The notes under the pieces: generated by a model
What the model was told of the DNA's origin: nothing
What the model saw: the letters and a program-made list of their open reading frames with translations, nothing else
Databases searched by the model: none
Source: Planctomycetota bacterium
GTDB taxonomy: Bacteria > Planctomycetota > Planctomycetia > Pirellulales > Thermoguttaceae
Length of the DNA: 50,750 bases
Assembly (NCBI GenBank): GCA_021784975.1
Contig: JAJYGU010000390.1
Span: 1 to 50,750 of the forward strand
Reading direction: 5' to 3'
Program-made: the position numbers and the translations under genes
Shown: one piece after another, positions 3,272 to 46,887 of the stretch
Position numbering within the stretch: position 1 is the first letter of the stretch
How the letters are laid out: every line of letters starts with the position of its first letter

Positions 3272-4237
3272 GTGACTCCCCTGCTGATCGGACTGATGGT
3301 GTTCGTGGGGGTGGCCGCCCTGGTGGGCGCGGTGAGTCTCTTCCTCCGCGATAAGCCCGCCAGCCGGATCGAGAACCGGCTCGACCTGTTGACCGGCACC
3401 AACGTCTCCGCCGCCAAGGAGGCCCTAAGTAAGGAGACCAGCATCCTCTCCCAGCCGTTGGACGACGGTGTGGGCATGTTCCAGAGTTTTCTGGAGCGGT
3501 TCAACGTCGCCCTGCTGTTTGAACAGGCCGACGCCAATTTGAACGTGGGGAAGTTCCTGGCCGTCTCGGCGGTGCTGGGCGGGCTGGGGATCGCCCTGGC
3601 AGTGATCATTCACATCCACCCCGCCCTGCTGCCGCTGGTGGGCGTGGGCATGGGCTCGTTGCCGCTTTTCTGGATCCTGTTTCGCCGCAAGCGGCGGATC
3701 AAGGCCTTCGCCGCCCAGCTTCCCGACGCCCTGGAGATGTTGGCCCGCGGCTTGCGTTCCGGGCAGAGCCTGGCCTTCGGGTTCAATATGGTGTCCCATG
3801 AGATGCCGGCGCCGATCGGCAGGGAGTTCGGCCGGGTGTTCGAGGAGCAAAACCTCGGTCTTGCCATGGACGAAAGCCTCAAGGCCATGACCAATCGCAT
3901 CCCCAACCTGGACTTGAAGTTTTTTGTCACCGCGGTGATTCTGCAGCGTCAGACCGGCGGCGACTTGGCCGAGATCCTCGACAAGATCGGCAACCTGATC
4001 CGCGATCGCTTCCGGATCTGGGGGCAAGTGCAGGCGTTAACCGGCGAAGGCCGGCTCTCGGGCGTGGTCCTGCTGGCCCTGCCTTTTGTGCTCTTCCTGG
4101 CCGTCTACCAGTTGAATCACGACTACCTCATGACGCTGTTCACCGATCCGCTGGGCACCAAGATGCTGGCGGTGGCGGTGGCCATGCAAATCCTCGGGGC
4201 TCTGGTGATCCGACATATCGTCAATATCAAGGTGTAA
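3272..4237 (+). CDS. tadB: Type II secretion system F-family inner-membrane protein (TadB-like)
   Basis: GTG start 3 nt after the cpaF stop, preceded by GGAGGA. N- and C-terminal TM segments flank a GspF/T2SSF-like cytoplasmic domain (LPDALEMLARGLRSGQSL). Confidence 0.85.
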   Translation: MTPLLIGLMVFVGVAALVGAVSLFLRDKPASRIENRLDLLTGTNVSAAKEALSKETSILSQPLDDGVGMFQSFLERFNVALLFEQADANLNVGKFLAVSAVLGGLGIALAVIIHIHPALLPLVGVGMGSLPLFWILFRRKRRIKAFAAQLPDALEMLARGLRSGQSLAFGFNMVSHEMPAPIGREFGRVFEEQNLGLAMDESLKAMTNRIPNLDLKFFVTAVILQRQTGGDLAEILDKIGNLIRDRFRIWGQVQALTGEGRLSGVVLLALPFVLFLAVYQLNHDYLMTLFTDPLGTKMLAVAVAMQILGALVIRHIVNIKV

Positions 4238-10851: not shown

Positions 10852-10903
10852 GGGGACCGTCCCATTCTTGTGGCGTCCTGCCACAAAAATCGGGACAGTC
10901 CCC
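10852..10903. repeat. Palindromic double-GGGACNGTCCC element, copy 1 (intergenic, in a divergent promoter region)
   Basis: ggggaccgtcccattcttgtggc-gtcct-gccacaaaaatcgggacagtcccc, with 11-bp palindromic boxes at 10853-10863 and 10892-10902. Confidence 0.85.
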
Positions 10904-25605: not shown

Positions 25606-27069
25606 ATGCCGCCCGTGGCCGGTGAAAGGAACCGCGTCTTGAAGATCAACGGCTATCTGTTGGGTTGCGTGGTGGTGGCTGCCTTGGGCGGCTTGTTGTT
25701 TGGCTTCGACGCGGCCGTGGTTTCGGGGACCACCGAGGCGCTCAAGAAGGTCTTTCAACTGGAGGATTCCTGGCTGGGGCTGCCCGGCTCGTTCTGGCTC
25801 GGCTTTACCGTGGCCAGCGCCATGATCGGCACGATTGTCGGCTCGATCGCGGTCGGCCGGCCGACCGACCGCTTCGGGCGACGGACGGTGTTGATCGCCA
25901 TTGCCGCCTTGTACGTGATCTCGTCGTTGGGAACCGCTCTTCCGCGGCACTGGACGACCTTTCTGCTCTTTCGCTTCATGGGCGGGCTGGCGATCGGCGG
26001 GGCCTCGGTGGTCTCGCCCATGTACATCGCCGAGATTTCCCCGGCCGCCTATCGCGGACGGCTGGTGGCGGTTACCCAATTCAACATCGTCTTCGGTATC
26101 CTGCTGGCCTTCTTCTCCAACTACCTGATTGCCCAGATGGACCTCGGCGACAACGAGTGGCGATGGATGTTCGGCGTGGTGGCGGTCCCGTCGGCAATTT
26201 TCTTCTTGCTGCTGTTTGTCACCCCCAACAGTCCGCGCTGGCTGGTGGCCCAAGGGAGGACCGAGGAAGCCCGCCGCATCTTTCGGCGACTGGGGGCGGA
26301 CGACGTAGAAGGCGAGCTGGGCGACATCCGGGCCTCGCTCGACACGGCCCATCACAGCCTTCGCGAACCGTTCTTCCGCAAAAGCTATCGCACACCGATC
26401 CTGCTGGTGGTGGCCATCGCCGTGTTCAACCAGCTTTCCGGCATCAACGCGCTGATGTTCTACGCGCCGGCCATTTTCAGCATGGCTGGGGCGGACAAGA
26501 GCGCTGCCCTGTTGCAGGCGGTGGCCGTCGGCGGCACGAATCTGGTGTTCACCATCGCGGCCATGGCGATCATCGATCATTTTGGGCGGCGGCGGCTGAT
26601 GATCGTGGGTTCGATCGGCTACATCCTCAGCCTGGGGGCCACCGCCTGGGCGTTTTACAGCTACGGCGACGCCTTTGCGGCGGCTGCCGACGCCGTCCGC
26701 TCCGGCGCTGCGGTCCCCGCCAGCGTGGCGGCGGCCGCTTCTTCCGGGGCCCTGACGGTGTTGATCAGCCTGTTGGTGTTTATCGCCTCGCACGCCTTCG
26801 GCCAGGGGGCGGTGATCTGGGTGTTCATCAGCGAGATTTTTCCCAATCGCGTGCGGGCGCGAGGGCAGGCCCTGGGCAGCTTCACCCACTGGTTCATGGC
26901 CGCCGCCGTGACTTGGACCTTCCCCGTCTTCGCCAAGCTCTCGGGCGGGCATACCTTTGCCTTCTATACGGTGATGATGGTCTTGCAATTGCTGTGGGTA
27001 TGGTTCATCATGCCGGAGACCAAGGGCGCATCGCTGGAAGAGATTCAATGTAAACTGGGGATTGAGTGA
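25606..27069 (+). CDS. MFS sugar porter (XylE/GalP-like)
   Basis: ATG at 25606. Sugar-porter signatures LGGLLFGFDAAVVSG, GRPTDRFGRR, PMYIAEISPAAYRGRL and PETKGASLEEI. Confidence 0.9.
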   Translation: MPPVAGERNRVLKINGYLLGCVVVAALGGLLFGFDAAVVSGTTEALKKVFQLEDSWLGLPGSFWLGFTVASAMIGTIVGSIAVGRPTDRFGRRTVLIAIAALYVISSLGTALPRHWTTFLLFRFMGGLAIGGASVVSPMYIAEISPAAYRGRLVAVTQFNIVFGILLAFFSNYLIAQMDLGDNEWRWMFGVVAVPSAIFFLLLFVTPNSPRWLVAQGRTEEARRIFRRLGADDVEGELGDIRASLDTAHHSLREPFFRKSYRTPILLVVAIAVFNQLSGINALMFYAPAIFSMAGADKSAALLQAVAVGGTNLVFTIAAMAIIDHFGRRRLMIVGSIGYILSLGATAWAFYSYGDAFAAAADAVRSGAAVPASVAAAASSGALTVLISLLVFIASHAFGQGAVIWVFISEIFPNRVRARGQALGSFTHWFMAAAVTWTFPVFAKLSGGHTFAFYTVMMVLQLLWVWFIMPETKGASLEEIQCKLGIE

Positions 27070-27094
27070 CCGCTTTTGCCAAGGAGAACCAACC

Positions 27095-28147
27095 ATGAAC
27101 GAAACTTCAACCACCCGCCGCGACTTCTTGAAAACCGCCTCGGCGGCGGTGGCGGGCGTCTCAGTAGCCTCGCTGGCCGCGGCCCAGCCGGCCGACACCG
27201 CCAAGATCCTCAACTACAACCCGAAGATGGGCTACCGGCCGTTGGGCAGCACGGGGTTCATGATCTCGGAGATTGCCCTGGGCGGACACGGCGGCCGAAC
27301 GCCTGAGGATCGCGTGCCGGTCCTCGAGCGGGCCGTCGAGCTTGGCATGAACTATGTGGACAACAACATGGCGAGCGAGTGCGAGATGTACGGGGCGGCC
27401 ATGGCCAAGTCGTCGGCTGCCCAACGCGACAAGTGGTTCATCGGCTTTGCTTCGTGGCCCGAAAAGATCACCAGCGAGTACGAGGACCAGTTGACGCCCC
27501 AGGGCATGATGAAGAACATCGAGGCCCGGCTCAAGACCTACCGCACCGAGATGCTCGACATGTGGCGGCCAGTCGGGGCGACCTGGGGCGAGGGGCAGAC
27601 CAAGATCGCCACCCTGTTGATGGTCAACCGCAAGGCGCTCGACATGGTGGTCTCGGTGTTTGAAAAGGCCAAGCGGCAGGGGAAGGTTCGTTTTTTGGGC
27701 GTATCGGCGCACAACCCCAAAGTTTTTCGCCGCGTGCTGCAAGAGTACCCCCAGTTCTCGGTGATTATCTTCCCGTACCTGTTCCTCACCGAAGAGTTCG
27801 GCGGCGACAGCCTCTTGAAGCTGGCGGACGAAAAGAAGGTGGGCGTGATCGGGCTCAAACCGTTCGGCGCCGGCACCACTTTCGGCGTCAAGCCGCAGCA
27901 GATCCATGGCAGAGTCGACCGGCGGGCACACGTGCTGCTAAAGGAGATGCTCAAGGAGCGGCGGATTTCGGCAGTCATCCCCGGCGTGAACATCCCCCAC
28001 CAACTCGACGAAAACGCAAAAGGCTCCCACGAAAAAGGCAAGCCGGCCAGCGACGCGGAAAAGCAGGCCCTGCTGGAATGCACCCGGAACTACCACGCCC
28101 ACCTCACTCCGAACTATCAGTGGCTGCACCAATGGGAACGCGTCTAA
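27095..28147 (+). CDS. Aldo/keto reductase-family protein with a twin-arginine signal peptide
   Basis: AAGGAGA then ATG at 27095. Tat motif TRRDFLKTASAAVAGVSVASLAAAQ. AKR-like elements GMNYVDNN...EMYG and LGVSAHN. The usual TK lysine position reads FAS. Confidence 0.85.
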   Translation: MNETSTTRRDFLKTASAAVAGVSVASLAAAQPADTAKILNYNPKMGYRPLGSTGFMISEIALGGHGGRTPEDRVPVLERAVELGMNYVDNNMASECEMYGAAMAKSSAAQRDKWFIGFASWPEKITSEYEDQLTPQGMMKNIEARLKTYRTEMLDMWRPVGATWGEGQTKIATLLMVNRKALDMVVSVFEKAKRQGKVRFLGVSAHNPKVFRRVLQEYPQFSVIIFPYLFLTEEFGGDSLLKLADEKKVGVIGLKPFGAGTTFGVKPQQIHGRVDRRAHVLLKEMLKERRISAVIPGVNIPHQLDENAKGSHEKGKPASDAEKQALLECTRNYHAHLTPNYQWLHQWERV

Positions 28148-28728
28148 GAGGGTGTCCAATCCCCGGAGCGCGGGCGTCTCGCCCGCCCTGCCGTCGGCAG
28201 AGCCGTCAACGTATTAGGCCGCCATCTGTCAGCCGTGCATTCGGCGCGACGGCGGTCGGCCTGGCCGTTCTGGCCGTCGTGGCGACTGCCCTCTGGGCCG
28301 GAGGTATCACCTCCGCACGCGCTGAAAAAACGGCCGGCAGGAAACCTACCATGGCTGCCGTCCCGCCGGATGAAGATGCCATCGATCCTCTCGGGGCGAA
28401 TGCGGCCTGCTACGTGTGCCACATGACCTTTGTCAAGGAGGAATTGGCCAAGGTCCACCTCAAGGCGAAGGTAGGCTGCATCCAGTGTCACGGCCTAAGC
28501 GCCAAACACGCCAACGACGAAAACATCGGCGCCACCAAGCCGGATATCACCTTCAAGCGTGAGCAGGTCGACGCCTCCTGCGCAAAATGCCACCAAACGC
28601 ACGATGCGCCGGCCCAAAAAGTCGTCGCCCGTTTCGTCGAGCGGCACCTGGCAGCCAATAAGCCGCCCATCTGCACCGATTGCCACGGCCAGCACAAAAT
28701 CGCCCGGGCAGCGGAGAAGAAACCATGA
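28132..28728 (+). CDS. Membrane-anchored tetraheme c-type cytochrome
   Basis: Four CxxCH motifs (CYVCH, CIQCH, CAKCH, CTDCH) follow a TM/signal segment AVGLAVLAVVATALWAG. The start is uncertain (ATG 28132 or 28078), and both choices overlap the AKR 3' end. Confidence 0.8.
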   Translation: MGTRLRGCPIPGARASRPPCRRQSRQRIRPPSVSRAFGATAVGLAVLAVVATALWAGGITSARAEKTAGRKPTMAAVPPDEDAIDPLGANAACYVCHMTFVKEELAKVHLKAKVGCIQCHGLSAKHANDENIGATKPDITFKREQVDASCAKCHQTHDAPAQKVVARFVERHLAANKPPICTDCHGQHKIARAAEKKP

Positions 28729-28988: not shown

Positions 28989-29882
28989 CTATCTCGCACG
29001 CAATTGCGCCAGCGTGCCCAGCCCGTAGTAGGTGTACTCTACGTCGGCGGCGTCGTCGCCGGGGCAGGCCAGGAAACCTCCGCCGCTTTGGCTGGTTTCG
29101 CGCACGAATCGGGCTGTGCCCGGCATGTCGACGGTATCGAGTCCGTCGAGGGCGGCTAGTGTTGTCAGGCCGGTGAAGGTGGAGAGCAGGTCGCCGGTCG
29201 GCGCGCCGGCGTGGGCCTTCAGGCCGCCGTCAGGGCTTTGCACACTGCTAAGAAAGCCGATCACCTGGGTGCGGTGACTGGAACACAGCGCATCGCGCAT
29301 AGTCAAGAAGGCGACGGCCGCGGCCGTGGCGTTGGTCTGCGACGCCGGCTGGCCGTCTAGTTCGGCAAAGCCGCCGTCGGCCCGACCGAGTGCCTCCACC
29401 GCCTGGATCGCGCCGTCGACGCCCGGCATGGGCTCGCCCAGCATCTGAAAGCACAGCGCCCCGAAAAACGTATAGTAGGCGCTCGTGCGCGAATCGCCGG
29501 GCCACCGAGTTAGCCCCCCGCCGGGCAGCAAATACCCGCGAAGCACCTCCAACACGCCCTGCCGGTCGAGCGACACTCGACCCGCTCCCAACGTGCGACC
29601 CACATTCAGGAGGCTGAATGCGTCCACGAGGTTTCGGGGGCAGCCGGTGTGCCGGCCCAGATAGTTTGTTGCCCGGTCGAAGGCCGGATCGTCGGGCGCC
29701 AGAATCGCGAGGCTCCGCAGGGCGAAGTCGGTATAGTACAGGTCGCTGCCGCCTTGGCGACCGCGAAATCCGCCGTCGGACTGCTGGCACTCCGTCACGA
29801 AGCGGACCTGGGCGCCGACAAATTCATCGCTCAAGCCTTGCAGACCGAGGCGGATCGCCTCATCCAGCAGATCGAGATACAT
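28989..29882 (-). CDS. Prenyltransferase/squalene-oxidase-repeat (alpha-alpha toroid) protein
   Basis: Repeated Q..DGGF / DGGL motifs (QQSDGGFRGRQGGSDLYYT, GRADGGFAE, QSPDGGLKA, SQSGGGFLACPGDDADVEYTYY). ATG lies 4 nt after the upstream stop. Confidence 0.8.
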   Translation of the reverse strand: MYLDLLDEAIRLGLQGLSDEFVGAQVRFVTECQQSDGGFRGRQGGSDLYYTDFALRSLAILAPDDPAFDRATNYLGRHTGCPRNLVDAFSLLNVGRTLGAGRVSLDRQGVLEVLRGYLLPGGGLTRWPGDSRTSAYYTFFGALCFQMLGEPMPGVDGAIQAVEALGRADGGFAELDGQPASQTNATAAAVAFLTMRDALCSSHRTQVIGFLSSVQSPDGGLKAHAGAPTGDLLSTFTGLTTLAALDGLDTVDMPGTARFVRETSQSGGGFLACPGDDAADVEYTYYGLGTLAQLRAR

Positions 29883-29886
29883 GCGT

Positions 29887-31683
29887 TCATTCCTGCAGAA
29901 TCATCCGCACGAAGAACTGCATCAGTTCTTGCAGGTCGGGCGTAGGAAACTCGGCGGCGGCGGCCAGGGCGCGGTCGCGCAACCTCGCGTACAACTGCTC
30001 AACCTTCGCCAGCGCGCCCGATTCGCAGTAGACCTGGTACACCTGGTCGAGCAACTCGTCGCTGGTCGAGTTCTCCATCAGCTCGGCCAGTTGCGCCAAC
30101 CGCGGTCCATGCCCGCCTTCCGTCGCGAAAATGTGCAACAGAGTGACACGGCCGGCGCGGGCGTCGAGGCCGCGATGCCGCTTGTTGTGTTGGTCTTCTT
30201 GCCAGTCATCGAGGTCGTTACGAACCTGGAACCCTTCGCCGAGATAGGTGGCAAAGCGGCGGAGGATCGTCGGGTCGACGTCCGCTTGGGCCGCCCGCAG
30301 CCCCGCATAGAGGGCCGCCTCGAAGGCCGGGGCCGTCTTCTGCGCGGCGGCCTGCATTGCTTGGGCCGCCGCATAGGGCGGCCGGTGATCCTGGCTTTGC
30401 AGTTCGGCTCCCTGCCCGCGGCACAGTTCCAAGTGGGCGCGCGAAAGCCGGTCGAGAATATCGCCACTGCAATCGGCCCCCAGCGGCACGCTTTGCCCGG
30501 CAATCAGCCGGTAGCCCAGGCCGATGAGGAAATCGCCGACGTTGATGGTCTGGGCCACGCCGTGAATGCGGTGCAGCGTGGGAAGGCCGTAGCGGTAGTG
30601 GTCGTTGTCTTCGATATCGTCGTGGACCAGCGAGGCCTTGTGCAAGGCTTCAATGGCTAAGGCGATGCGGCGGACCGCCACTGGCAGTCGCTCCGCCAGA
30701 TCGCTGCCCGGGTCCGCCTGCTCCAGAACGCCGGTTCCGTGTTTGGCCACCGCATAGGCTGCCAGGGTCACGAACGGCCGCAAGCGTTTGCCGCCCTCTT
30801 GGAGCCATTGCAAGGCTATCTCTTGAACCGTTGGCCCCAAGGGGGGCCGTCCCATTTCCACAGCCTCCTGCCGCGAAAATTGGGACAGTCCCCGTGAACC
30901 GTTACCAAGCTGCCCGGCTAATTCGGCAACCTCGATATAAGGCGCGAGCAGCTCGGCGAACGTCGGCTGGCGAAACATCCGACCGGTCTCGCGGAGCAGA
31001 CCGAGGTAGCTCCGCCGCGAGGTCGGCGTCAAGACCGCCGTCGGCGCGGACTGCGCCGCCAAGAGACTGCGAATCTGGCCGATTTCCGCTTCGGTGTCCT
31101 TGCAACCGTCTCTCAGCAACGGTACGGCGACGTGCGGGATGCCGAGCTCGACGACGCGTTGGAAGGATCGCTCCAGGGAATCGAGGCAGGCGACGCCGAG
31201 GATCGCATCCGCGTCCCCTTCCAACACGCGAAAAAGAACCGACGAGGTGCCTTCCGCCACGATCACCGAGTAGCCCAACTGCTCGGCTTCGGCCTTCAAG
31301 GCGTGGATCTCGCAACTGCCGCAGCCGGCGCAGTGCAGGCCCACGGAATCATAGCTGCCCGCGCACGCGGTCTGGTCGCGCAAGCAATGCGGCAGCAGGA
31401 ACAACCGGCGATGAAGGGCGACAGTCTCGAAGATCGGCAGCCAGAATTCGTTGCTGACCGCTACCATGGTGAAACCAAGTAGAGTCCGCGGCAGCTCCAA
31501 CCGCTGCAAAATCTCCTTGCCGATTTGCTCCAATCCCTCCCGCGACATGGGACGCGAGCGGTCCAGCCCGGCCGCTGCTCGGGCCGCGGCCGAGCGAATC
31601 GCCTGCCGCAGGGTGGCGCTTTCAGGAACGCGCTTGATCTCGTCGTGGCGGCGGTGAGCGGCTTTCAGAGGCTTAGAGGTCAT
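29887..31683 (-). CDS. Fusion protein: DUF116-like Cys-rich domain plus trans-polyprenyl diphosphate synthase domain
   Basis: ATG at 31683 overlaps the cyclase TGA (ATGA). The N-terminal half has LFLLPHCL...CAGCGSCEI...GYSVIVAEGTS...GVAC (DUF116 pattern). The C-terminal half has GKRLRP, LVHDDIEDND (first Asp-rich motif) and FQVRNDLDDW (variant second motif). The track's longer ORF to 32319 is an artefactual extension. Confidence 0.8.
   Translation of the reverse strand: MTSKPLKAAHRRHDEIKRVPESATLRQAIRSAAARAAAGLDRSRPMSREGLEQIGKEILQRLELPRTLLGFTMVAVSNEFWLPIFETVALHRRLFLLPHCLRDQTACAGSYDSVGLHCAGCGSCEIHALKAEAEQLGYSVIVAEGTSSVLFRVLEGDADAILGVACLDSLERSFQRVVELGIPHVAVPLLRDGCKDTEAEIGQIRSLLAAQSAPTAVLTPTSRRSYLGLLRETGRMFRQPTFAELLAPYIEVAELAGQLGNGSRGLSQFSRQEAVEMGRPPLGPTVQEIALQWLQEGGKRLRPFVTLAAYAVAKHGTGVLEQADPGSDLAERLPVAVRRIALAIEALHKASLVHDDIEDNDHYRYGLPTLHRIHGVAQTINVGDFLIGLGYRLIAGQSVPLGADCSGDILDRLSRAHLELCRGQGAELQSQDHRPPYAAAQAMQAAAQKTAPAFEAALYAGLRAAQADVDPTILRRFATYLGEGFQVRNDLDDWQEDQHNKRHRGLDARAGRVTLLHIFATEGGHGPRLAQLAELMENSTSDELLDQVYQVYCESGALAKVEQLYARLRDRALAAAAEFPTPDLQELMQFFVRMILQE
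30843..30893. repeat. Palindromic GGGACNGTCCC element, copy 2 (degenerate left box), inside the DUF116-synthase ORF
   Basis: ggggccgtcccatttccacagcctcctgccgcgaaaattgggacagtcccc is 51 nt long. It is read through in frame as ...GNGSRGLSQFSRQEAVEMGRPPLG... about 15 codons before GKRLRP. Confidence 0.75.
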
Positions 31684-33044
31684 CTGCGGGTTGCTCTGCC
31701 AAGGGCCTCGATCGTCCAGATCAGCGGATACAGCCGTTCCGAGTACCAAAGCCGGGAAAAATACAGGCCGATGGCCGCCGGCCGGTCGCACCCCTGGCGG
31801 ACGTTTGCCACCAGGTACTTCACTCCTCGCGACACGCAGTGGCCGGCCGCCGGATTTTGCGGCCAACCGGCCAGGGCCGCCACGGCCAGCGCCGTCTCCT
31901 CGACCGATGACGCAATGCCGGTGGAGCCGCCCCAGCCGCCGTCGGCGTTTTGCGCGCGGCACAGATATTCTACGCCACCGGCCGCCTGGGCACCATTGCC
32001 GTCGACGATTTCCAAGGCCCGGAGCACCAATGAGGTGCCAATCACCGGATTGTGCTGACCCGGTGCGGCCTGGTTGCCAAACCAGAGCGGCAGCCAAGAG
32101 CCATCGGACTCTTGGACGCGGCCCAGATAGTCCCCTCCGCGGCGGAGTGCGCGCCGCAGCCGGGCGGTCGATACGCGGTGCGTAGAAGGGGACAGTCCCA
32201 TTTTTGCGGCATCCTGCCACAAAAATTGGGACCGTCCCCGGCGGTTGATACCACCCAGGGCGCGGAGCACGTGGGCCGTCACATCCGGGGCGCTGCGGTC
32301 GAAGAGGAGCTTTCCCCATCCACGGCAGAAGGTCGGCCAGCCGCCGTCGCGGTTTTGCAAGTTAAGCAGCCAGTTTACGCCGGCAACGGCGCCGGCGTGG
32401 TGCCCCAGTTCCGCCAGCGCGATCAGGGCCCCGGCCGTGTCATCCGCGTCGGGCACCCCGCCCGGCAGATGCGTCCATGCCCAGGCGCCCGCCGCCGCCT
32501 GCGTGTAGGGGTGCGCGGAGGCCGTTTGTCGAGCGGCGACCCATGGGCCGGTCGTAGGGCAATCAAGTTGTCCTAGCGATCCGGCCGCCGCCAGCGCGGT
32601 AACCGCCGATGTGGTCAGCCATACCGCCAGGTTCGTGTCGATCGGCCAACTGCCGTCGGCCCGCTGCGATTGGCGAAGGAATTGCAGGCAGCGGGCGGCT
32701 ACCGGCTGTTCCGGTCCGAATGACGAAACCAGGCCCATGGCGACGAAGCTGGTTAGCGGGGCCGCATCCAGGAATCCGCCATGTTCCGGCTGAATCTGCT
32801 GAAGCTTCGCCAAGGCCCGCGGCGTCGTCGCTCGCCGTAACGCGCGCAGCAAGCCACTGTGGGGCGGACCATGGTGGTGGATTGCCAGGCCAATGGCAAT
32901 CAGGGCCGGCAGGGCATAGCTGACCACGTGGAGCCGGAGCAGTCTATAGCACCAAGGCGGCAGCACCGACAACTCGAAGGGCAGGCCGGGAACCTCCGGC
33001 CAAGAAACCAACCCGGCCAGGGCGCAGTTCATCAAGATCGGCAC
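31680..33044 (-). CDS. Class II terpene cyclase (squalene-hopene-cyclase-like), C-terminal about 75 percent; same frame as 33066-33488
   Basis: DxDDTA catalytic motif (VPDADDTAG) and QW-like repeats QRADGSWP, QNRDGGWPTF, QESDGSWLPLWFGN, QNADGGWGG. The track start is a GTG with no SD, 21 nt after an in-frame TAG. Confidence 0.8.
   Translation of the reverse strand: MPILMNCALAGLVSWPEVPGLPFELSVLPPWCYRLLRLHVVSYALPALIAIGLAIHHHGPPHSGLLRALRRATTPRALAKLQQIQPEHGGFLDAAPLTSFVAMGLVSSFGPEQPVAARCLQFLRQSQRADGSWPIDTNLAVWLTTSAVTALAAAGSLGQLDCPTTGPWVAARQTASAHPYTQAAAGAWAWTHLPGGVPDADDTAGALIALAELGHHAGAVAGVNWLLNLQNRDGGWPTFCRGWGKLLFDRSAPDVTAHVLRALGGINRRGRSQFLWQDAAKMGLSPSTHRVSTARLRRALRRGGDYLGRVQESDGSWLPLWFGNQAAPGQHNPVIGTSLVLRALEIVDGNGAQAAGGVEYLCRAQNADGGWGGSTGIASSVEETALAVAALAGWPQNPAAGHCVSRGVKYLVANVRQGCDRPAAIGLYFSRLWYSERLYPLIWTIEALGRATRR
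32188..32239. repeat. Palindromic GGGACNGTCCC element, copy 3, inside the cyclase ORF
   Basis: ggggacagtcccatttttgcggcatcctgccacaaaaattgggaccgtcccc. It is translated in frame as ...RRGRSQFLWQDAAKMGLSPS..., between a DVTAHVLRAL helix and the next QW repeat. Confidence 0.85.
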
Positions 33045-33065
33045 CGCAAACGTGCGATCGGCGCC

Positions 33066-33488
33066 CTAGGCGCGTTGAATTGCACAGGCAATCTCGCGGG
33101 CCGAAAGGGGAGAAGCACACTTGCACTGTGTGACCACGTACTCTTCGGCCCCCAGCTTCATGTCTGGCGCGGATGGGATGCGGAGCGCGCCTGCCAACCT
33201 CAAGGCGGCGAGGGCCAACAGCGTGGTCGCCAGGTTGCTGGGGCTATCAGTCGTGTCGCCCCAACCGCCGTCGGCGTTCTGATGCGCGGCCAGCCAGGCT
33301 ACGCCACTGCGGACGCCTTCGCGGTCGCTGTCCACTTTGGCCAGGGCGAGCGCGCTGATGGCGGTCGCGGTCGAAAGCGCCGACGAAGAAAGCTCCCCCT
33401 CCCAAAAGCCCTCGGGCCGCCGCGCCTCGATCAGCCGGCCGCAGAGGAATTGAAGCGTGTCGGCCATGACCGCCTGGAAGGTCAGCAT
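33066..33488 (-). CDS. Class II terpene cyclase, N-terminal fragment, ending at an in-frame TAG
   Basis: MLTFQAVMADTLQFLCGRLIEARRPEGFWEGEL and AAHQNADGGWGDT resemble the SHC N-terminus. ATG at 33488 lies 30 nt after the radical SAM stop. Longer starts (33590, 33653) would overlap that gene. Confidence 0.6.
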   Translation of the reverse strand: MLTFQAVMADTLQFLCGRLIEARRPEGFWEGELSSSALSTATAISALALAKVDSDREGVRSGVAWLAAHQNADGGWGDTTDSPSNLATTLLALAALRLAGALRIPSAPDMKLGAEEYVVTQCKCASPLSAREIACAIQRA

Positions 33489-33517
33489 TTCGGACGCATT
33501 TGCGTTGGCAGGCGTGG

Positions 33518-35020
33518 TCAAGTTCGCGCCCTCCAGGCATGCCAGGCCAACAAGAACTTCCACTGCAAGATCTGGCCGCGACCCAGACATTGCAAGGCGA
33601 CGCGACGGAACCGCGGTACGCCCGCCGCCTGCTGGTTGTCGGCGTAGATCCAAGGCACCCAGCGAAAATTGAGTCGGTAGCAGGTCCTTATCAACGACCA
33701 GTGTAGCGGCCGCAGGCGCCGCCGGTCGATCGGCGCCGCGCCATCGACCGGGGCAAAGAGCAAGGGAAAAACAGCGATCCGCTCCTTGCTCAGGCTGCGC
33801 ACCCAGTCCAGCGTCTCCACGAGGTGTTCGTCGCCTTCGCCGGGCAGGCCGATCATGAGGCTGACCATCGGAAAGAAGCCGGCCCGGCAGAGCCGCCGCA
33901 CCTGTTCGGCGCAGAAGGCGCCCCAGTCGCCGGCTTGGCGGCCGTGCATCTTGGCCGCCCCGCCGATCTTCCGGAGCAAGTCGCCTGAGGCGGTTTCCAC
34001 GCCCAAGTTGACCCAGACGCGGCGATCGAGGTCGCGGCCCACGAGCAGATCGTGCAACGCGGCAAGCTGCCGATCGTCATACTGAGCGACGCTCGACACG
34101 TTGGCATGATCCAGTTGAATGAGCCGCACCCGCGAGAGCTGTCGAATCCTCTGAAGCAAAGAAATCAGTGCGTCGGGCCGGGCGTTGAGACCCTCGGCGC
34201 CGTAGCGGAAGAAATCCTCGCTCAAGACGGCCACATTGTGCAAGCCGGCGCTAAGGTTCGTATCGACATCGGCTATTACCGTCTCTGGCGGAAGATGGAC
34301 CATTGGCACCCGGGCGATGGTGCAATACGAGCAGCCCAGCCCGCAGCCCCGGCTGATCTCCACCGCGCCCATGGTGGTGGCGCCGCGGATCGGAGGAATT
34401 GGTGCCGCCGCATGCCAGCCGCCTTCGATCACTTCCGGGGTTGGGTTTTTTTGCACTAGCCGGCGGAAGGCGGCCGCCACCTTTTCTTCCGCATAGCCGG
34501 TCAGCAGATGATCGATGCCCAACGCCTTGCGCTCGGCGGGGCGGCCGGCAAGCTGCCAGGCCCCCGGTCCGCCCAACACCACCGCGGCCGAGGTGCGCCG
34601 GCGGAGCCGCCGCACTTTGCGCATCAGGCGGCGAAACATCGCCTGCGGGTAAATCCGCCCGCCGGCCACGGCGGTCATGGTCGAGCTGTTCATGCCCAAG
34701 CCCGCCGGCTCGCCGGAGGAGATGCCGATCACGCGGGTCGCCGGCCCGATGGCGTAGTCGAGTTGATCGTCGCGGACTACGGCCACCTCTTCCGCCGTGA
34801 ATCCATCGGCCAGCAAGGCGGCTTCGACGCGTCGCAATCCCAGCGGGGCCAGGCTGGCCCGATCTGCCGCCCCGCGGGGACGCGGCATCAGCAGGCCCGC
34901 GAACAGTGCCGGCGGGGCGGTGGTGGTCTGGCTGGCGGCCAACATCCCGTCGAACAACAGCCGGTAATCCGCCGTCAGCGTTCGGTCGGCCGTCAGGACG
35001 ATCGGGAAGCCGTGGAACAT
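33518..35020 (-). CDS. Radical SAM enzyme with an N-terminal B12-binding-like domain
   Basis: CxxxCxxC cluster motif in AVEISRGCGLGCSYCTIARVP. The N-terminal roughly 200 aa look like a Rossmann-type domain. ATG lies 6 nt after the ferredoxin-gene stop. Confidence 0.9.
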   Translation of the reverse strand: MFHGFPIVLTADRTLTADYRLLFDGMLAASQTTTAPPALFAGLLMPRPRGAADRASLAPLGLRRVEAALLADGFTAEEVAVVRDDQLDYAIGPATRVIGISSGEPAGLGMNSSTMTAVAGGRIYPQAMFRRLMRKVRRLRRRTSAAVVLGGPGAWQLAGRPAERKALGIDHLLTGYAEEKVAAAFRRLVQKNPTPEVIEGGWHAAAPIPPIRGATTMGAVEISRGCGLGCSYCTIARVPMVHLPPETVIADVDTNLSAGLHNVAVLSEDFFRYGAEGLNARPDALISLLQRIRQLSRVRLIQLDHANVSSVAQYDDRQLAALHDLLVGRDLDRRVWVNLGVETASGDLLRKIGGAAKMHGRQAGDWGAFCAEQVRRLCRAGFFPMVSLMIGLPGEGDEHLVETLDWVRSLSKERIAVFPLLFAPVDGAAPIDRRRLRPLHWSLIRTCYRLNFRWVPWIYADNQQAAGVPRFRRVALQCLGRGQILQWKFLLAWHAWRART

Positions 35021-35026
35021 GGCCGA

Positions 35027-35992
35027 TCAGCCTCTCCGCTGCATGGCTCGGTCGAGCTGATCCACCAGATCGTCGAGATCGCTGAAGGCCCGCCGCTGGG
35101 CGGATTCGCCGGACTCCTTCGGAGGCGTGTGGGTCATGGCTTCACGCCCCGCGGGCGGGCGGGCGGATTGCGTTAGCTCCGCCAGCGGGCAGCCACATTC
35201 AGGACAGGCGCCGTTGCCCGCCACCGCCGCCCGCGACTTCTTGGCGACCTTTTGGCCGCAGGCCGGACAGGGCCGGCCGGTGCGGGAGTAGAACATCCGG
35301 CGGGCGGCGGCATCGAGGGCCACCAACTTGCCCGGCGCTCCGGCAATGGCCGCGTCCTTCTCATAGAGCGGAAACATAAGGGCGCTTTGCGGGCAGATAC
35401 GTGCGCAGGCCGGACAGCCCGGCTTGCACTGGTCCGGTTGCCGGACCTGGACCTTCCCATCTCCGTCCAACTCGTACACGCCGAATAGACAGAACTGCAA
35501 ACAATGCTGACAGTTGGTGCACCGCGACTGGTCGACCACCGGGTACCAGCGCGGCTTGGTCGGGGCTCGCAATTCTACCAATCGCCCGGCGTCAAAGGGG
35601 GCAGTCCCAGTTTCGCGGCGGTCAACCGCGTGAGTACGGCTAGATCGCTGGCGCCGCGAGAATGGGGATAGTCCCCCGGCCGCGGCGAAGGCCGACTTGG
35701 CGTCGGCAAACGTGCGGAGATCGAGAATGTGCGATTCGGCGAGGTGAATCTGGTGCCGATGTAAGAGCCAGCTCACCGCCCGCGGATGCAACCATCCGAG
35801 CAAGACTGCCTGCTCCACGCCGTCCGCCAATGCCTTCCAGAGCTTGCTCGACTCAGCCAGGTGATACAGCGGCGGCACGACAAGACAATCGACATCCTCG
35901 GCCCCACATCGTTCGATGATGTCCTGCTCGAGCGCGACCGTCCGCGCATCGGGATGCTCGTGCTTCGAGAGAATGATCCGGTTGGGGCGCAT
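35027..35992 (-). CDS. Two-domain protein: unknown N-terminal domain plus 2x[4Fe-4S] ferredoxin domain and a C-terminal CxxC...CxxC tail
   Basis: ATG at 35992. Cluster motifs CTNCQHCLQFC and CKPGCPACARICP, then CPACGQK...CPECGC near the C-terminus. Confidence 0.8.
   Translation of the reverse strand: MRPNRIILSKHEHPDARTVALEQDIIERCGAEDVDCLVVPPLYHLAESSKLWKALADGVEQAVLLGWLHPRAVSWLLHRHQIHLAESHILDLRTFADAKSAFAAAGGLSPFSRRQRSSRTHAVDRRETGTAPFDAGRLVELRAPTKPRWYPVVDQSRCTNCQHCLQFCLFGVYELDGDGKVQVRQPDQCKPGCPACARICPQSALMFPLYEKDAAIAGAPGKLVALDAAARRMFYSRTGRPCPACGQKVAKKSRAAVAGNGACPECGCPLAELTQSARPPAGREAMTHTPPKESGESAQRRAFSDLDDLVDQLDRAMQRRG
35597..35675. repeat. Degenerate palindromic GGGACNGTCCC-type element, copy 7, inside the ferredoxin ORF
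   Basis: ggggcagtcccagtttcgcggcg ... gccgcgagaatggggatagtcccc. It is translated in frame as ...GGLSPFSRRQRSSRTHAVDRRETGTAPF... and links the two domains. Confidence 0.5.
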
Positions 35993-36024: not shown

Positions 36025-36915
36025 TCACTCGACTCGGCTGGGGAAAATCGCCTTGAGATACTTGCGGTTGGCAACGTAATCCACCATCAGCCCGTGCGGA
36101 GCGGCGGCTTCGAGCTGAATCCAGCCGCTGTAGTGGATGTCATCAAGCGCCTTGCGGACCTGGCGGAAGTCGATCCGGCCTTGGCCGAGCAGGTAGCCGG
36201 CGTCTTTGGCGTGGAATTCGCAGATCAGCGGCCCGAGCGTGCGGATCTCCTTGAGGATGTCGCGGCCCTTGTCGGTCGAGTTGCCCACGTCGTAGTAGAC
36301 CTTGACGGCCGGGGAGCCGACACGATCGATGATCCGCATGTTGTCCTCGGCGCTCAAGTAATCCTCGATGCCAATCCGCACCCCTTGTTTTTCCGCCTTG
36401 GGGGCCACGTCTTTCAGCACTCCCACCAGGTGGTCGATCTCGGCAGTGCGGCGCAAGTCGAGGTCGCCCGCGTAAAAGCAGGCCGGCATGACGACCGTCA
36501 GCCCGAGGGCCGTGCAGACGTCGATGCTGTCGGCCAACCACCGGGCTGCCCGCGGATCGCGTTTCAGCGGCACGCTGTTCATCTCGCCGATGGCCAGCGA
36601 AGCGATCTGAAGGCCGGTCCGTTTGGCGGCCTCGCGGTAGCTCTGCTGCACATCGGGGCGCCGCAGGTGCATGTTGTTGCCGACCGACCCCATTTCGACC
36701 TGCACGCCATCGAGCCCGAGGGCCTTGGCGACATCGAAGGCCGCTGTGTCACCGCGTTTGCCCAGCGACCAGTCGCAGGCCCCGATTTTAAAGCCACGCG
36801 ACTGCGGGGCGGCCAGGAGCGGTTCGAGGCCGCCCGCCGCCGCGGCAAAGGCGGCTGCCTGGGCTGAGCGGATAAGCATGGCGCGGCGGGTCAATTGAGG
36901 GCGTGTCGGTTTCAT
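36025..36915 (-). CDS. Sugar phosphate isomerase/epimerase (xylose-isomerase-like TIM barrel) with a Tat signal
   Basis: ATG at 36915. N-terminus MKPTRPQLTRRAMLIRSAQAAAFAAAAGG. AP-endonuclease-2/TIM-barrel-like body. Confidence 0.85.
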   Translation of the reverse strand: MKPTRPQLTRRAMLIRSAQAAAFAAAAGGLEPLLAAPQSRGFKIGACDWSLGKRGDTAAFDVAKALGLDGVQVEMGSVGNNMHLRRPDVQQSYREAAKRTGLQIASLAIGEMNSVPLKRDPRAARWLADSIDVCTALGLTVVMPACFYAGDLDLRRTAEIDHLVGVLKDVAPKAEKQGVRIGIEDYLSAEDNMRIIDRVGSPAVKVYYDVGNSTDKGRDILKEIRTLGPLICEFHAKDAGYLLGQGRIDFRQVRKALDDIHYSGWIQLEAAAPHGLMVDYVANRKYLKAIFPSRVE

Positions 36916-36954
36916 GGCAGACTCCAATTGGGGACTTCTCACAATATCCAGCCG

Positions 36955-40647: not shown

Positions 40648-40718
40648 GGGGGACAGTCCCATTTTTGTGGCCGGGCACCGTGCGAAGCATGGTCGCCACA
40701 AAAATCGGGACAGTCCCC
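40648..40718. repeat. Palindromic GGGACNGTCCC element, copy 4 (long-loop variant, intergenic)
   Basis: gggggacagtcccatttttgtggc-[24-nt loop]-gccacaaaaatcgggacagtcccc, with boxes at 40650-40660 and 40707-40717. Confidence 0.85.
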
Positions 40719-43330: not shown

Positions 43331-43430
43331 AGCGGCCGTCCAAGAACAAGTTGGGGACTGTCCCAATTTTCGTCCGACGAAAATGGGACTGTCCCCTTGG
43401 CGAAAGTGGAAGTTGTTGCTGGACGGCCGC
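43331..43430 (+). mobile_element. 100-bp MITE-like palindromic element, copy A (contains two GGGACTGTCCC boxes)
   Basis: It is the exact reverse complement of 46788-46887. The internal palindrome is ggggactgtcccaattttcgtc/gacgaaaatgggactgtcccc. The near-palindromic outer ends are gcggccgtccaagaacaa / ttgttgctggacggccgc. Confidence 0.85.
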
Positions 43431-46812: not shown

Positions 46813-46887
46813 TTTCGCCAAGGGGACAGTCCCATTTTCGTCGGACGAAAATTGGGACAGTCCCCAACTTGTTCTTGGACGGCCGCT
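46788..46887 (-). mobile_element. 100-bp MITE-like palindromic element, copy B
   Basis: It is the exact reverse complement of 43331-43430. It lies between two co-directional genes of the efflux operon. Confidence 0.85.

Follow-up and report, generated by a model that had tools for sequence, protein, structure and literature searches.

A conserved five-gene cluster of Planctomycetota and other bacteria as a candidate route to a cyclised, non-squalene isoprenoid lipid

We analysed positions 1-50,750 of contig JAJYGU010000390.1 from a Planctomycetota bacterium (Thermoguttaceae; assembly GCA_021784975.1), a stretch of 50,750 nucleotides (nt) hereafter called the window. Positions 28989-35992 on its minus strand harbour five tightly packed genes, encoding a ferredoxin-domain protein, a radical S-adenosylmethionine (SAM) enzyme, a class II terpenoid cyclase resembling squalene-hopene cyclase (SHC), a fusion of DUF116 with a polyprenyl synthase and an alpha-alpha toroid protein. 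These genes form a fixed five-gene unit, a cassette, which is common to aerobes and anaerobes of at least seven bacterial phyla. We propose that they constitute one operon for an oxygen-independent route to a non-squalene cyclised isoprenoid lipid, which would then be modified by radical chemistry. We give this proposal as a whole an even chance, and any single detail of the scheme much less than that.

Organization of the gene cluster

The list of open reading frames (ORFs) and the Pfam/NCBIfam search revealed five genes on one strand with near-zero spacers:

35027..35992, minus strand: ferredoxin-domain protein, 321 amino acids (aa), 4Fe-4S dicluster, Pfam Fer4_10/Fer4_7 at residues 150-205
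33518..35020, minus strand: radical SAM enzyme, 500 aa, PF04055 at 2.9e-11
31680..33488, minus strand: SHC-like class II (protonation-type) terpenoid cyclase, 602 codons, SQHop_cyclase_N and SQHop_cyclase_C
29887..31683, minus strand: DUF116-polyprenyl synthase fusion, 598 aa, PF01976 at 9.5e-31 (residues 58-206) and PF00348 at 5.4e-41 (residues 286-550)
28989..29882, minus strand: alpha-alpha toroid protein, 297 aa, Prenyltrans PF00432 at 3.7e-19

An earlier reading of this DNA, the first-pass annotation, had placed five minus-strand genes with these domains at these coordinates, and the Pfam profile search bore it out, except that it spoke of six ORFs while listing five. It was also right about the gap of 6 nt between the ferredoxin and radical SAM genes, the ATGA overlap of the cyclase and fusion genes and the 4 nt before the toroid gene; between the radical SAM and cyclase genes there are 29 nt instead of the stated 30. 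Orthologue alignments agree with the gene starts at 35992 and 33488. The longest ORF holding the synthase gene (29887-32319) comprises 810 codons and overlaps the cyclase gene by about 640 nt; its extra N-terminal part is a low-complexity, Arg/Gly/Pro-rich artefact of high G+C content, and orthologue alignment backs the ATG at 31683.

The cluster combines its own prenyl-chain synthase with a protonation-type cyclase in one compact operon, as had been claimed. Neither squalene synthase (hpnCDE/sqs), nor a class I terpene synthase, nor a P450 was detected by Pfam/NCBIfam in the cluster or the flanking ORFs of the window, in agreement with the earlier reading. A promoter scan found no sigma-70-like site, and terminator-like matches were weak.

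Conservation across bacterial phyla

A genome scan with the radical SAM alignment yielded 181 loci, 80 of which were fetched and analysed. Judged by record title, these belong to Planctomycetota (23), Armatimonadota (23), Verrucomicrobiota (10), Acidobacteriota (9), Zipacnadia (3), WS1 (2) and Firestonebacteria (1), with 9 unclassified; the Verrucomicrobiota loci include one metagenome-assembled genome (MAG) of Methylacidiphilum and one of Victivallales. Searches of the window proteins against the loci by tblastn revealed the order ferredoxin protein, radical SAM enzyme, cyclase, DUF116-synthase and toroid nearly everywhere. Fifty-eight loci carried enough flanking sequence to be informative, and in 50 of them all five genes are colinear on one strand. 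Lack of co-conservation, which the first-pass annotation had set as grounds for refutation, is thus clearly not observed. The others lack the toroid nearby (5 loci), hold the first three genes only (1) or hold the radical SAM gene alone (2). The ferredoxin gene adjoins the radical SAM gene in 73 of 76 loci, and the prenyl synthase is adjacent to the cyclase in nearly all.

Since several phyla contribute to the 50 loci (of 58 informative ones) with this order, the arrangement is far beyond chance. Between phyla, the radical SAM enzymes are 45-70% identical and the cyclases 50-60%, values that indicate strong purifying selection on the gene set.

Some radical SAM orthologues stand alone, at L004:9995-11512, L005:4038-5546 and L007:1844-3352, in Pirellulaceae and Anammoximicrobium MAGs. 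They are 66-68% identical and have unrelated neighbours: a pyridine nucleotide-disulphide oxidoreductase with a rhodanese domain, an RDD protein and a sigma-54 activator.

The prenyl synthase-DUF116 fusion

All of the top 120 database relatives of the fusion carry both domains. The AlphaFold2 (AF2) model of the fusion has a pLDDT of 82.3 and a pTM of 0.84, and the PF00348 match spans profile positions 4-249 of 251. The motifs of the protein are as follows:

30607..30621, minus strand: first Asp-rich motif (FARM), DDIED, preceded by HKASLVH with Ala at position -5
30202-30219, minus strand: second Asp-rich motif (SARM), NDLDDW, of the family form NDLxDW
31102..31386, minus strand: Cys-rich core of DUF116, with C100, C107, C118, C121, C124, C166 and C194

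The FARM and the isopentenyl diphosphate (IPP)-binding elements GGKRLRP, KT and FQ are invariant in 26 fusion proteins. Before the FARM, the residue at -5 is Ala, compared with Tyr in the C20 enzyme 1wy0. It is an established rule of chain length that a small residue at this position leads to products longer than C20. Based on this rule and the Ala at -5, the product of the synthase is probably longer than C20. Its closest matches among structures are synthases of medium and long chains, including the heptaprenyl diphosphate synthase HepPPS (9kp1), and the nearest folds are hexa- to decaprenyl synthases, mostly C30-C50.

The seven cysteines of DUF116 are likewise invariant in the 26 fusion proteins, although the CxxCxxC stretch is missing in two distant members (L069 and L078). 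In the literature searched, comments on DUF116 are confined to its description as a predicted flavodoxin-like metal-binding domain and to its fusion with a polyprenyl synthetase in Psta_0175 of Pirellula staleyi (PMC5898192). A Foldseek search with the fusion model returned prenyl synthases only and gave no fold match for DUF116.

The cyclase and its in-frame stop codon

The best match of the cyclase profile in the PDB is the SHC of A. acidocaldarius (3.9e-42), followed by lanosterol synthase, drimenyl diphosphate synthases and ent-copalyl diphosphate synthase. In Pfam, SQHop_cyclase_N and SQHop_cyclase_C are matched on both halves of the gene. Two features of the gene are central:

32433..32450, minus strand: DADDTA, the DxDD catalytic-acid motif, aligned with PDVDDTA (D374/D376/D377) of SHC (1gsz)
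33066..33068, minus strand: in-frame TAG in place of the invariant Tyr (Y141) of YGxDRTF

The cyclase therefore aligns across the DxDD region of class II cyclases, the check that the first-pass annotation had set for it, and the residues D347, D349, D350 and T351 as well as the acid-assisting His are invariant in the family alignment. Against the TIGR01507 hopene_cyclase model, whose cut-off is 431.1 bits, the C-terminal part scored 57.6 bits and the N-terminal part 36.5 bits, and by this profile the cyclase is not an SHC equivalog. Together with the lack of any HpnH/P/R match, these scores agree with the earlier view that the cluster fits neither the hopanoid nor the diterpene type.

The earlier reading had treated 33488-31680 as an open reading frame and missed the TAG. 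Orthologues of the cyclase have 570-710 aa, and each of the 67 in related loci is encoded by one uninterrupted ORF. Across 23 sequences of the family, Y141 does not vary. The contig L081, of 3887 bp and from another assembly, is identical to window 29212-33098 at 3883 of 3887 positions (99.9%) and has TAC at the stop codon. Since this near-identical contig reads TAC, the TAG is either an error of the consensus or a mutation that arose very recently at strain level. The four differences fall at the stop codon 33066-33068, at 33086 (TGT here, CGT in L081), at 31806 and at 30846.

We regard it as highly improbable that the cluster in the window is a decaying remnant with a cyclase pseudogene. Such a state would explain a stop in an invariant codon and the public database entry, in which the gene caller recorded only the distal product of 450 aa. 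Apart from the intact codon of L081, it is contradicted by the gene itself, which has no frameshifts and no further stops and is about 50-65% identical to orthologues in both halves, like the other four genes. In addition, two of the four differences lie within 20 nt, as local consensus errors would fall. The first-pass annotation had named a decaying cluster among the outcomes that would undo its proposal; the premature stop, which it had not seen, is present, but it is absent from L081, and as far as the sequence tells the cluster is not decaying.

The radical SAM enzyme and its ferredoxin partner

The two iron-sulphur proteins encoded at the head of the cluster carry the following motifs:

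34322..34345, minus strand: CGLGCSYC, the CxxxCxxC motif of the radical SAM [4Fe-4S] cluster (C226, C230, C233)
35393..35521, minus strand: two 4Fe-4S motifs of the ferredoxin-domain protein, CxxCxxCxxxC and CxxxCxxCxxxC, CTNCQHCLQFC...CKPGCPACARIC

C226, C230 and C233 are the sole invariant cysteines of the radical SAM family. The best NCBIfam match, TIGR04013, scored 67.8 bits, below its cut-off of 251. The AF2 model (pLDDT 84.8) predicts an N-terminal Rossmann domain resembling B12-binding domains, a radical SAM core and C-terminal helices. Its top Foldseek matches are MgmA (9ccb, 3.8e-16) and TsrM, then AprD4 and MiaB/RimO, with TM-scores of about 0.5. The earlier label 'B12-like' thus holds at the level of the fold and in the Pfam matches of three homologues, but not as a Pfam B12-binding domain in the window protein. 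From the model, the C-methylation or C-C chemistry that the first-pass annotation had suggested is plausible for this enzyme.

No close solved relative was found in the PDB by sequence, with E-values of 4e-4 or worse. Hundreds of full-length relatives exist at 55-84% identity, all with generic labels only. The family is small and tight: in 1.84 billion proteins (50% clustering) it has 198 representatives at E<=1e-30, and scores fall sharply beyond a full-length core of about 20. A second tier, also of full-length proteins (500-550 aa, 170-370 bits, representatives P0382-P0510) indicates that sister families exist.

Several known identities were considered for the enzyme and rejected. A Tes-, Mss- or Grs-type enzyme is contradicted by the lack of any Tes match in the PDB even at E<=10 and by the absence of Tes from the best 50 Foldseek matches. 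None of the HpnH, HpnP and HpnR models is among its 13 NCBIfam matches. A methylthiotransferase of the MiaB/RimO type would have three N-terminal auxiliary-cluster cysteines, which are absent, and the scores are far under the cut-offs. The ladderane B12-radical SAM model matched the window protein at 7e-5, far below its own cut-off.

In the ferredoxin-domain protein, the eight cluster cysteines C158, C161, C164, C168, C189, C193, C196 and C200 are invariant in 19 orthologues. The N-terminal part of about 100 aa has no family match, and the Cys-rich linker is hypervariable. Despite this, the acidic C-terminal tail D-L-D-x-L-I-D-x-L-D (35027-35060) is conserved across phyla and may serve as a docking peptide for the radical SAM enzyme.

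The toroid protein

The best PDB matches of the toroid profile are RabGGTase beta (5e-19) and FTase beta (5e-13), with homology over the whole barrel. In the hidden Markov model alignment, the zinc triad D238/C240/H290 of RabGGTase beta aligns to D231/L233/Y283 of the toroid. A canonical zinc prenyltransferase was therefore rejected, as the Cys and His of the zinc site are replaced by Leu and Tyr. No PPTA-repeat alpha-subunit protein is encoded in the cluster or its flanks.

Proposed pathway and alternative explanations

Based on these results, we propose the following route. The synthase half of the fusion would extend an allylic diphosphate with IPP; the resulting prenyl diphosphate would be regular and all-trans and would probably exceed C20 in length. 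The zinc-less toroid would receive or hold the prenyl chain. The SHC-like enzyme would protonate the terminal double bond through its DxDD acid and thereby start the cyclisation, either directly or after loss of the diphosphate. The radical SAM enzyme, reduced by its dedicated 2x[4Fe-4S] partner, would then make one more radical modification, of which C-methylation seems the most likely, with 5'-deoxyadenosyl addition or C-C bond formation as alternatives. The Fe-S domain DUF116 would give or take electrons, possibly to reduce the diphosphate. Outside this lineage, several phyla have a GT4 glycosyltransferase, an FtsX-type exporter and a NuoEF-like electron-input module next to the cassette, which would point to a glycosylated envelope lipid. 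The identities of the domains, the conserved catalytic motifs, the operon structure and the synteny across phyla are seen directly in the sequences; from them we infer the substrate, the product and its chain length, the order of the steps, the radical SAM reaction and the roles of DUF116 and the toroid.

Several observations weigh against this route. No product, substrate or transcript is on record for any member of the cassette, and radical SAM orthologues are solitary in some genomes (L004, L005 and L007). The predicted chain length derives from one rule of thumb and from fold neighbours. The first Asp of the SARM is replaced by Asn in about 90% of the members, with the IPP-binding residues still invariant, and given this Asn the synthase may be a non-standard elongating enzyme. 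For the radical SAM enzyme, Pfam does not detect the B12-binding domain PF02310 in the window protein, precomputed Pfam shows it in 3 of 120 homologues, and the fold neighbours include the non-methylating AprD4 and MiaB. The TAG splits the cyclase into the ORFs 33066..33653 and 31680..33044. By its sequence, the toroid has no zinc site, and its part in the route is putative. Finally, the absence of squalene synthase among the recurrent neighbours of the 80 loci refers to those loci and not to whole genomes.

In a hopanoid-like scheme, the SHC-like enzyme would cyclise squalene made elsewhere in the genome, the synthase would only boost farnesyl diphosphate (FPP) and the radical SAM enzyme would decorate the triterpene like HpnH, HpnP or HpnR. 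Of all solved structures, that of SHC is much the nearest to the cyclase (3.9e-42), hopanoid pathways do employ radical SAM enzymes (PMC13459092), and a Bipolaricaulota cluster groups DUF116, IspH, SHC, an 'adenosyl-hopene transferase' and a polyprenyl synthetase. We still consider this scheme unlikely, as the hopene_cyclase score of 57.6 bits stands against a cut-off of 431, the HpnH/HpnP/HpnR models are unmatched, the FARM context with Ala at -5 is unlike that of FPP synthase, and squalene synthase is unlinked in the window and missing from the recurrent neighbours of the 80 loci; a non-squalene precursor has also been argued for independently (PMC7306690). In a further scheme, which appears unlikely, the toroid would be a transferase that attaches the cyclised prenyl group to an acceptor, and the product would be a meroterpenoid, a prenylated cofactor or a prenylated nucleoside. 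Here the cyclase would act on a prenyl diphosphate or a prenylated head group, and the scheme would resemble Rv3377c/Rv3378c, MstE, or Lon15/AtoE of the sister clade. The full-barrel homology of the toroid to prenyl-diphosphate-binding beta subunits would suit such a transfer, as would the redox-rich neighbours (NuoEF-like proteins, polyferredoxins) if the product were quinone-like, and the clade of unknown function has been placed sister to meroterpenoid epoxy-polyprenyl cyclases (PMC12324236). The cassette, on the other hand, holds no aromatic-precursor gene, no UbiA-type or ABBA-type prenyltransferase gene and no epoxidase gene; canonical thiol prenylation would require a zinc site, which the toroid lacks, and a DxDD acid suits an unactivated alkene.

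A non-terpenoid function seems very improbable to us. In that case the products of the cluster would either modify a protein or peptide or assemble into an electron-transfer complex, with the toroid and the cyclase-like protein serving as binding modules. Such a function would account for MgmA, which ranks first among the structural matches to the radical SAM enzyme, being a protein methylase, for the closest relatives of the toroid acting on proteins, and for conserved neighbours that are redox proteins and secreted beta-propellers. But the DxDD of the cyclase and the catalytic and IPP-binding residues of the synthase are invariant across phyla, which binding modules would not need, and no conserved small precursor-peptide ORF was seen in a clustering whose minimum of 110 aa would miss one.

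The route to a non-squalene cyclised isoprenoid can be taken one step further. The cassette might be the long-sought bacterial route to regular head-to-tail polycyclic polyprenoids and hence a source of orphan biomarkers, namely extended tricyclic terpanes and tetracyclic polyprenoids; DUF116 would then be a new Fe-S domain reducing diphosphates, and the radical SAM enzyme would add one or more carbons without oxygen. We rate this extended version, taken whole, as quite unlikely. Extended tricyclic terpanes are the cheilanthanes, and a hypothetical 'tricyclohexaprenol' was put forward by Ourisson. The literature searched held nothing relevant on the biosynthesis of tricyclohexaprenol or cheilanthanes. 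Orphan terpanes do exist in the sedimentary record (PMC12324236, PMC13547773). If the product were a regular polycyclic polyprenoid, an orphan class of biomarkers could be tied to its producers. Cyclic terpenoids are membrane regulators and the main bacterial molecular fossils, and the cassette provides a concrete minimal gene set for finding a cyclised lipid product. It could also give DUF116 a first function and reveal a new radical SAM reaction on isoprenoids.

Accessory genes in other phyla

Recurrent neighbours of the cassette were obtained by clustering the flanking ORFs of the 80 loci, with the minimum of 110 aa:

48 loci: BamB/PQQ-like beta-propellers, several per locus, one often between the cyclase and the synthase
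21 loci: GT4 glycosyltransferase, directly after the toroid, or between synthase and toroid (Verrucomicrobia); for example L012:15902-17182 and L052:15207-16511
20 loci: membrane polyferredoxin
19 loci: NHL-repeat protein
17 loci: NuoE/NuoF-type flavoprotein fusion
11 loci: ferredoxin with a twin-arginine translocation (TAT) signal
8 loci: large FtsX-type permease
8 loci: GcvH-like protein
1 locus (Blastocatellia): second radical SAM-SPASM protein

In Armatimonadota and some Planctomycetota, the NuoE/NuoF fusion, membrane polyferredoxin, TAT-signal ferredoxin, NHL-repeat protein and PQQ/BamB-like propellers form a conserved operon, usually divergent and sited about 1-9 kb before the cassette (L010-L013, L017, L019, L024-L028, L030-L035, L043, L044, L062 and L071). 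The accessory genes suggest electron supply, glycosylation and export, which would fit an envelope lipid. They were rejected as a part of the cluster described here, since none is present in the window.

Flanking genes and palindromic elements of the window

The genes that flank the cluster in the window encode a xylose-isomerase-like TIM barrel, a GFO/IDH oxidoreductase, a URO-D-like protein, a multihaem cytochrome c, an aldo-keto reductase and a sugar transporter. They are unconnected to isoprenoid metabolism, and none recurs beside the cassette elsewhere (tblastn, fetched loci). The xylose-isomerase-like TIM gene (36025-36942) lies on the same strand only 32 nt upstream, yet it stands beside the cassette in none of the 80 loci and was rejected as a member; its single match among these loci is weak (48 bits) and lies on the opposite strand, 6 kb downstream, in L025. 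The multihaem cytochrome c gene (28078-28728, plus strand) and a TAT-signal aldo/keto reductase gene (27062-28147, plus strand) converge on the end of the cluster and are not conserved with the cassette.

A palindrome resembling repetitive extragenic palindromic (REP) elements is present within cluster genes and elsewhere:

32188..32240, no strand assigned: REP-like palindrome, in frame in a loop of the cyclase
30842-30894: copy in the linker of the synthase, in frame
35597-35676: copy in the linker of the ferredoxin-domain protein, in frame
10852-10903, 40649-40718, 43353-43396 and 46822-46865: further sites in the window

The element is about 53 nt long, GGGGACAGTCCCATTTTTGCGG...CCACAAAAATTGGGACCGTCCCC, and the window holds 12 half-site matches versus 0.04 expected. 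The in-frame copies add 17-19 residues, and all orthologues are without them. They resemble the in-frame palindromic elements of Rickettsia.

Comparison with known systems

None of the five proteins reaches the cut-off of the characterised families tested, comprising SHC, HpnH/P/R, Tes, the methylthiotransferases and the zinc prenyltransferases. In the literature and databases searched, no orthologous cluster with an assigned product was found, the check that the first-pass annotation had asked for. Its term 'undescribed' was nevertheless overstated, as parts of the system have been reported. Santana-Molina et al. (2020) described a divergent 'SHC-like' clade whose planctomycete members keep the catalytic residues and, judged from an unusual genomic context, probably use non-squalene precursors (PMC7306690). 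McShea et al. (2025) found the same clade, with proteins of 550-700 aa and 'unknown function', in the Planctomycetota-Verrucomicrobiota-Chlamydiota (PVC) and Fibrobacterota-Chlorobiota-Bacteroidota (FCB) groups, Spirochaetota and Acidobacteriota, and named it as a gap that constrains accounts of how triterpenoid cyclases evolved (PMC12324236). The DUF116 fusion is likewise in print (PMC5898192).

The window cyclase would belong to this clade by shared properties rather than by a shared tree, and it agrees with the clade in every property compared: both are two-domain cyclases of about 600 aa with the catalytic residues kept, occur in PVC bacteria and Acidobacteriota and stand in a context away from squalene. 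The core idea of a non-squalene SHC-like cyclase is therefore already published as a hypothesis. By contrast, the main texts of PMC7306690 and PMC12324236 contain neither the five-gene cassette, nor the radical SAM/ferredoxin pair, nor Armatimonadota members. What is possibly new is the fixed five-gene unit, in which the cyclase is joined by radical SAM, ferredoxin, DUF116 and toroid partners; the same applies to the occurrence of this unit in Armatimonadota and candidate phyla and to its accessory modules.

Similar to hopanoid biosynthesis (HpnCDE, SHC/HpnF, HpnH/HpnJ/HpnP/HpnR), the cassette pairs a protonation cyclase of the SHC superfamily with radical SAM tailoring, but it lacks a linked squalene synthase and has the DUF116-prenyl synthase fusion and the toroid instead. 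It differs from a bacterial class II/class I diterpene cluster in having neither a class I terpene synthase nor a P450 in the cluster and its flanks. In the sesquarterpene pathway of Bacillus, which consists of heptaprenyl diphosphate synthase, YtpB and SqhC, a relative of SHC cyclises a regular head-to-tail chain. The proposed substrate of the cassette would also be a regular prenyl chain, and its synthase resembles medium- and long-chain enzymes including HepPPS. However, the cassette has no YtpB-type enzyme, its cyclase is not SqhC-like by NCBIfam, and the Bacillus pathway itself has no radical SAM, ferredoxin, DUF116 or toroid partner. Details of that pathway are given in part in PMC12324236.

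The cobalamin-dependent class B radical SAM methylases MgmA and TsrM share the predicted Rossmann, core and C-terminal-helix architecture of the cassette enzyme and are its best Foldseek matches, but with a TM-score of only about 0.5, an identity of about 15% and sequence E-values >=4e-4, cobalamin use by the cassette enzyme is putative. The toroid has the full alpha-alpha barrel with PFTB repeats of RabGGTase/FTase beta, and differs in the Leu and Tyr at the positions of the zinc Cys and His and in the lack of an alpha subunit encoded nearby. A 2026 review of lipid-modifying radical SAM enzymes covers Tes, Mss, Gms, GrsA/B, Gmm, Cds, HpnH/J/P/R, Jaw5 and the ladderane enzymes, and reports a ferredoxin next to a Tes homologue (PMC13459092). 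With Tes/GDGT-MAS and the lipid radical SAM enzymes Mss, Gms, GrsA/B, Cds, Jaw5 and those of ladderanes, the cassette shares a radical SAM gene beside isoprenoid-lipid genes and a ferredoxin; it is set apart from Tes by its radical SAM sequence, which gave no PDB match to it even at the permissive threshold.

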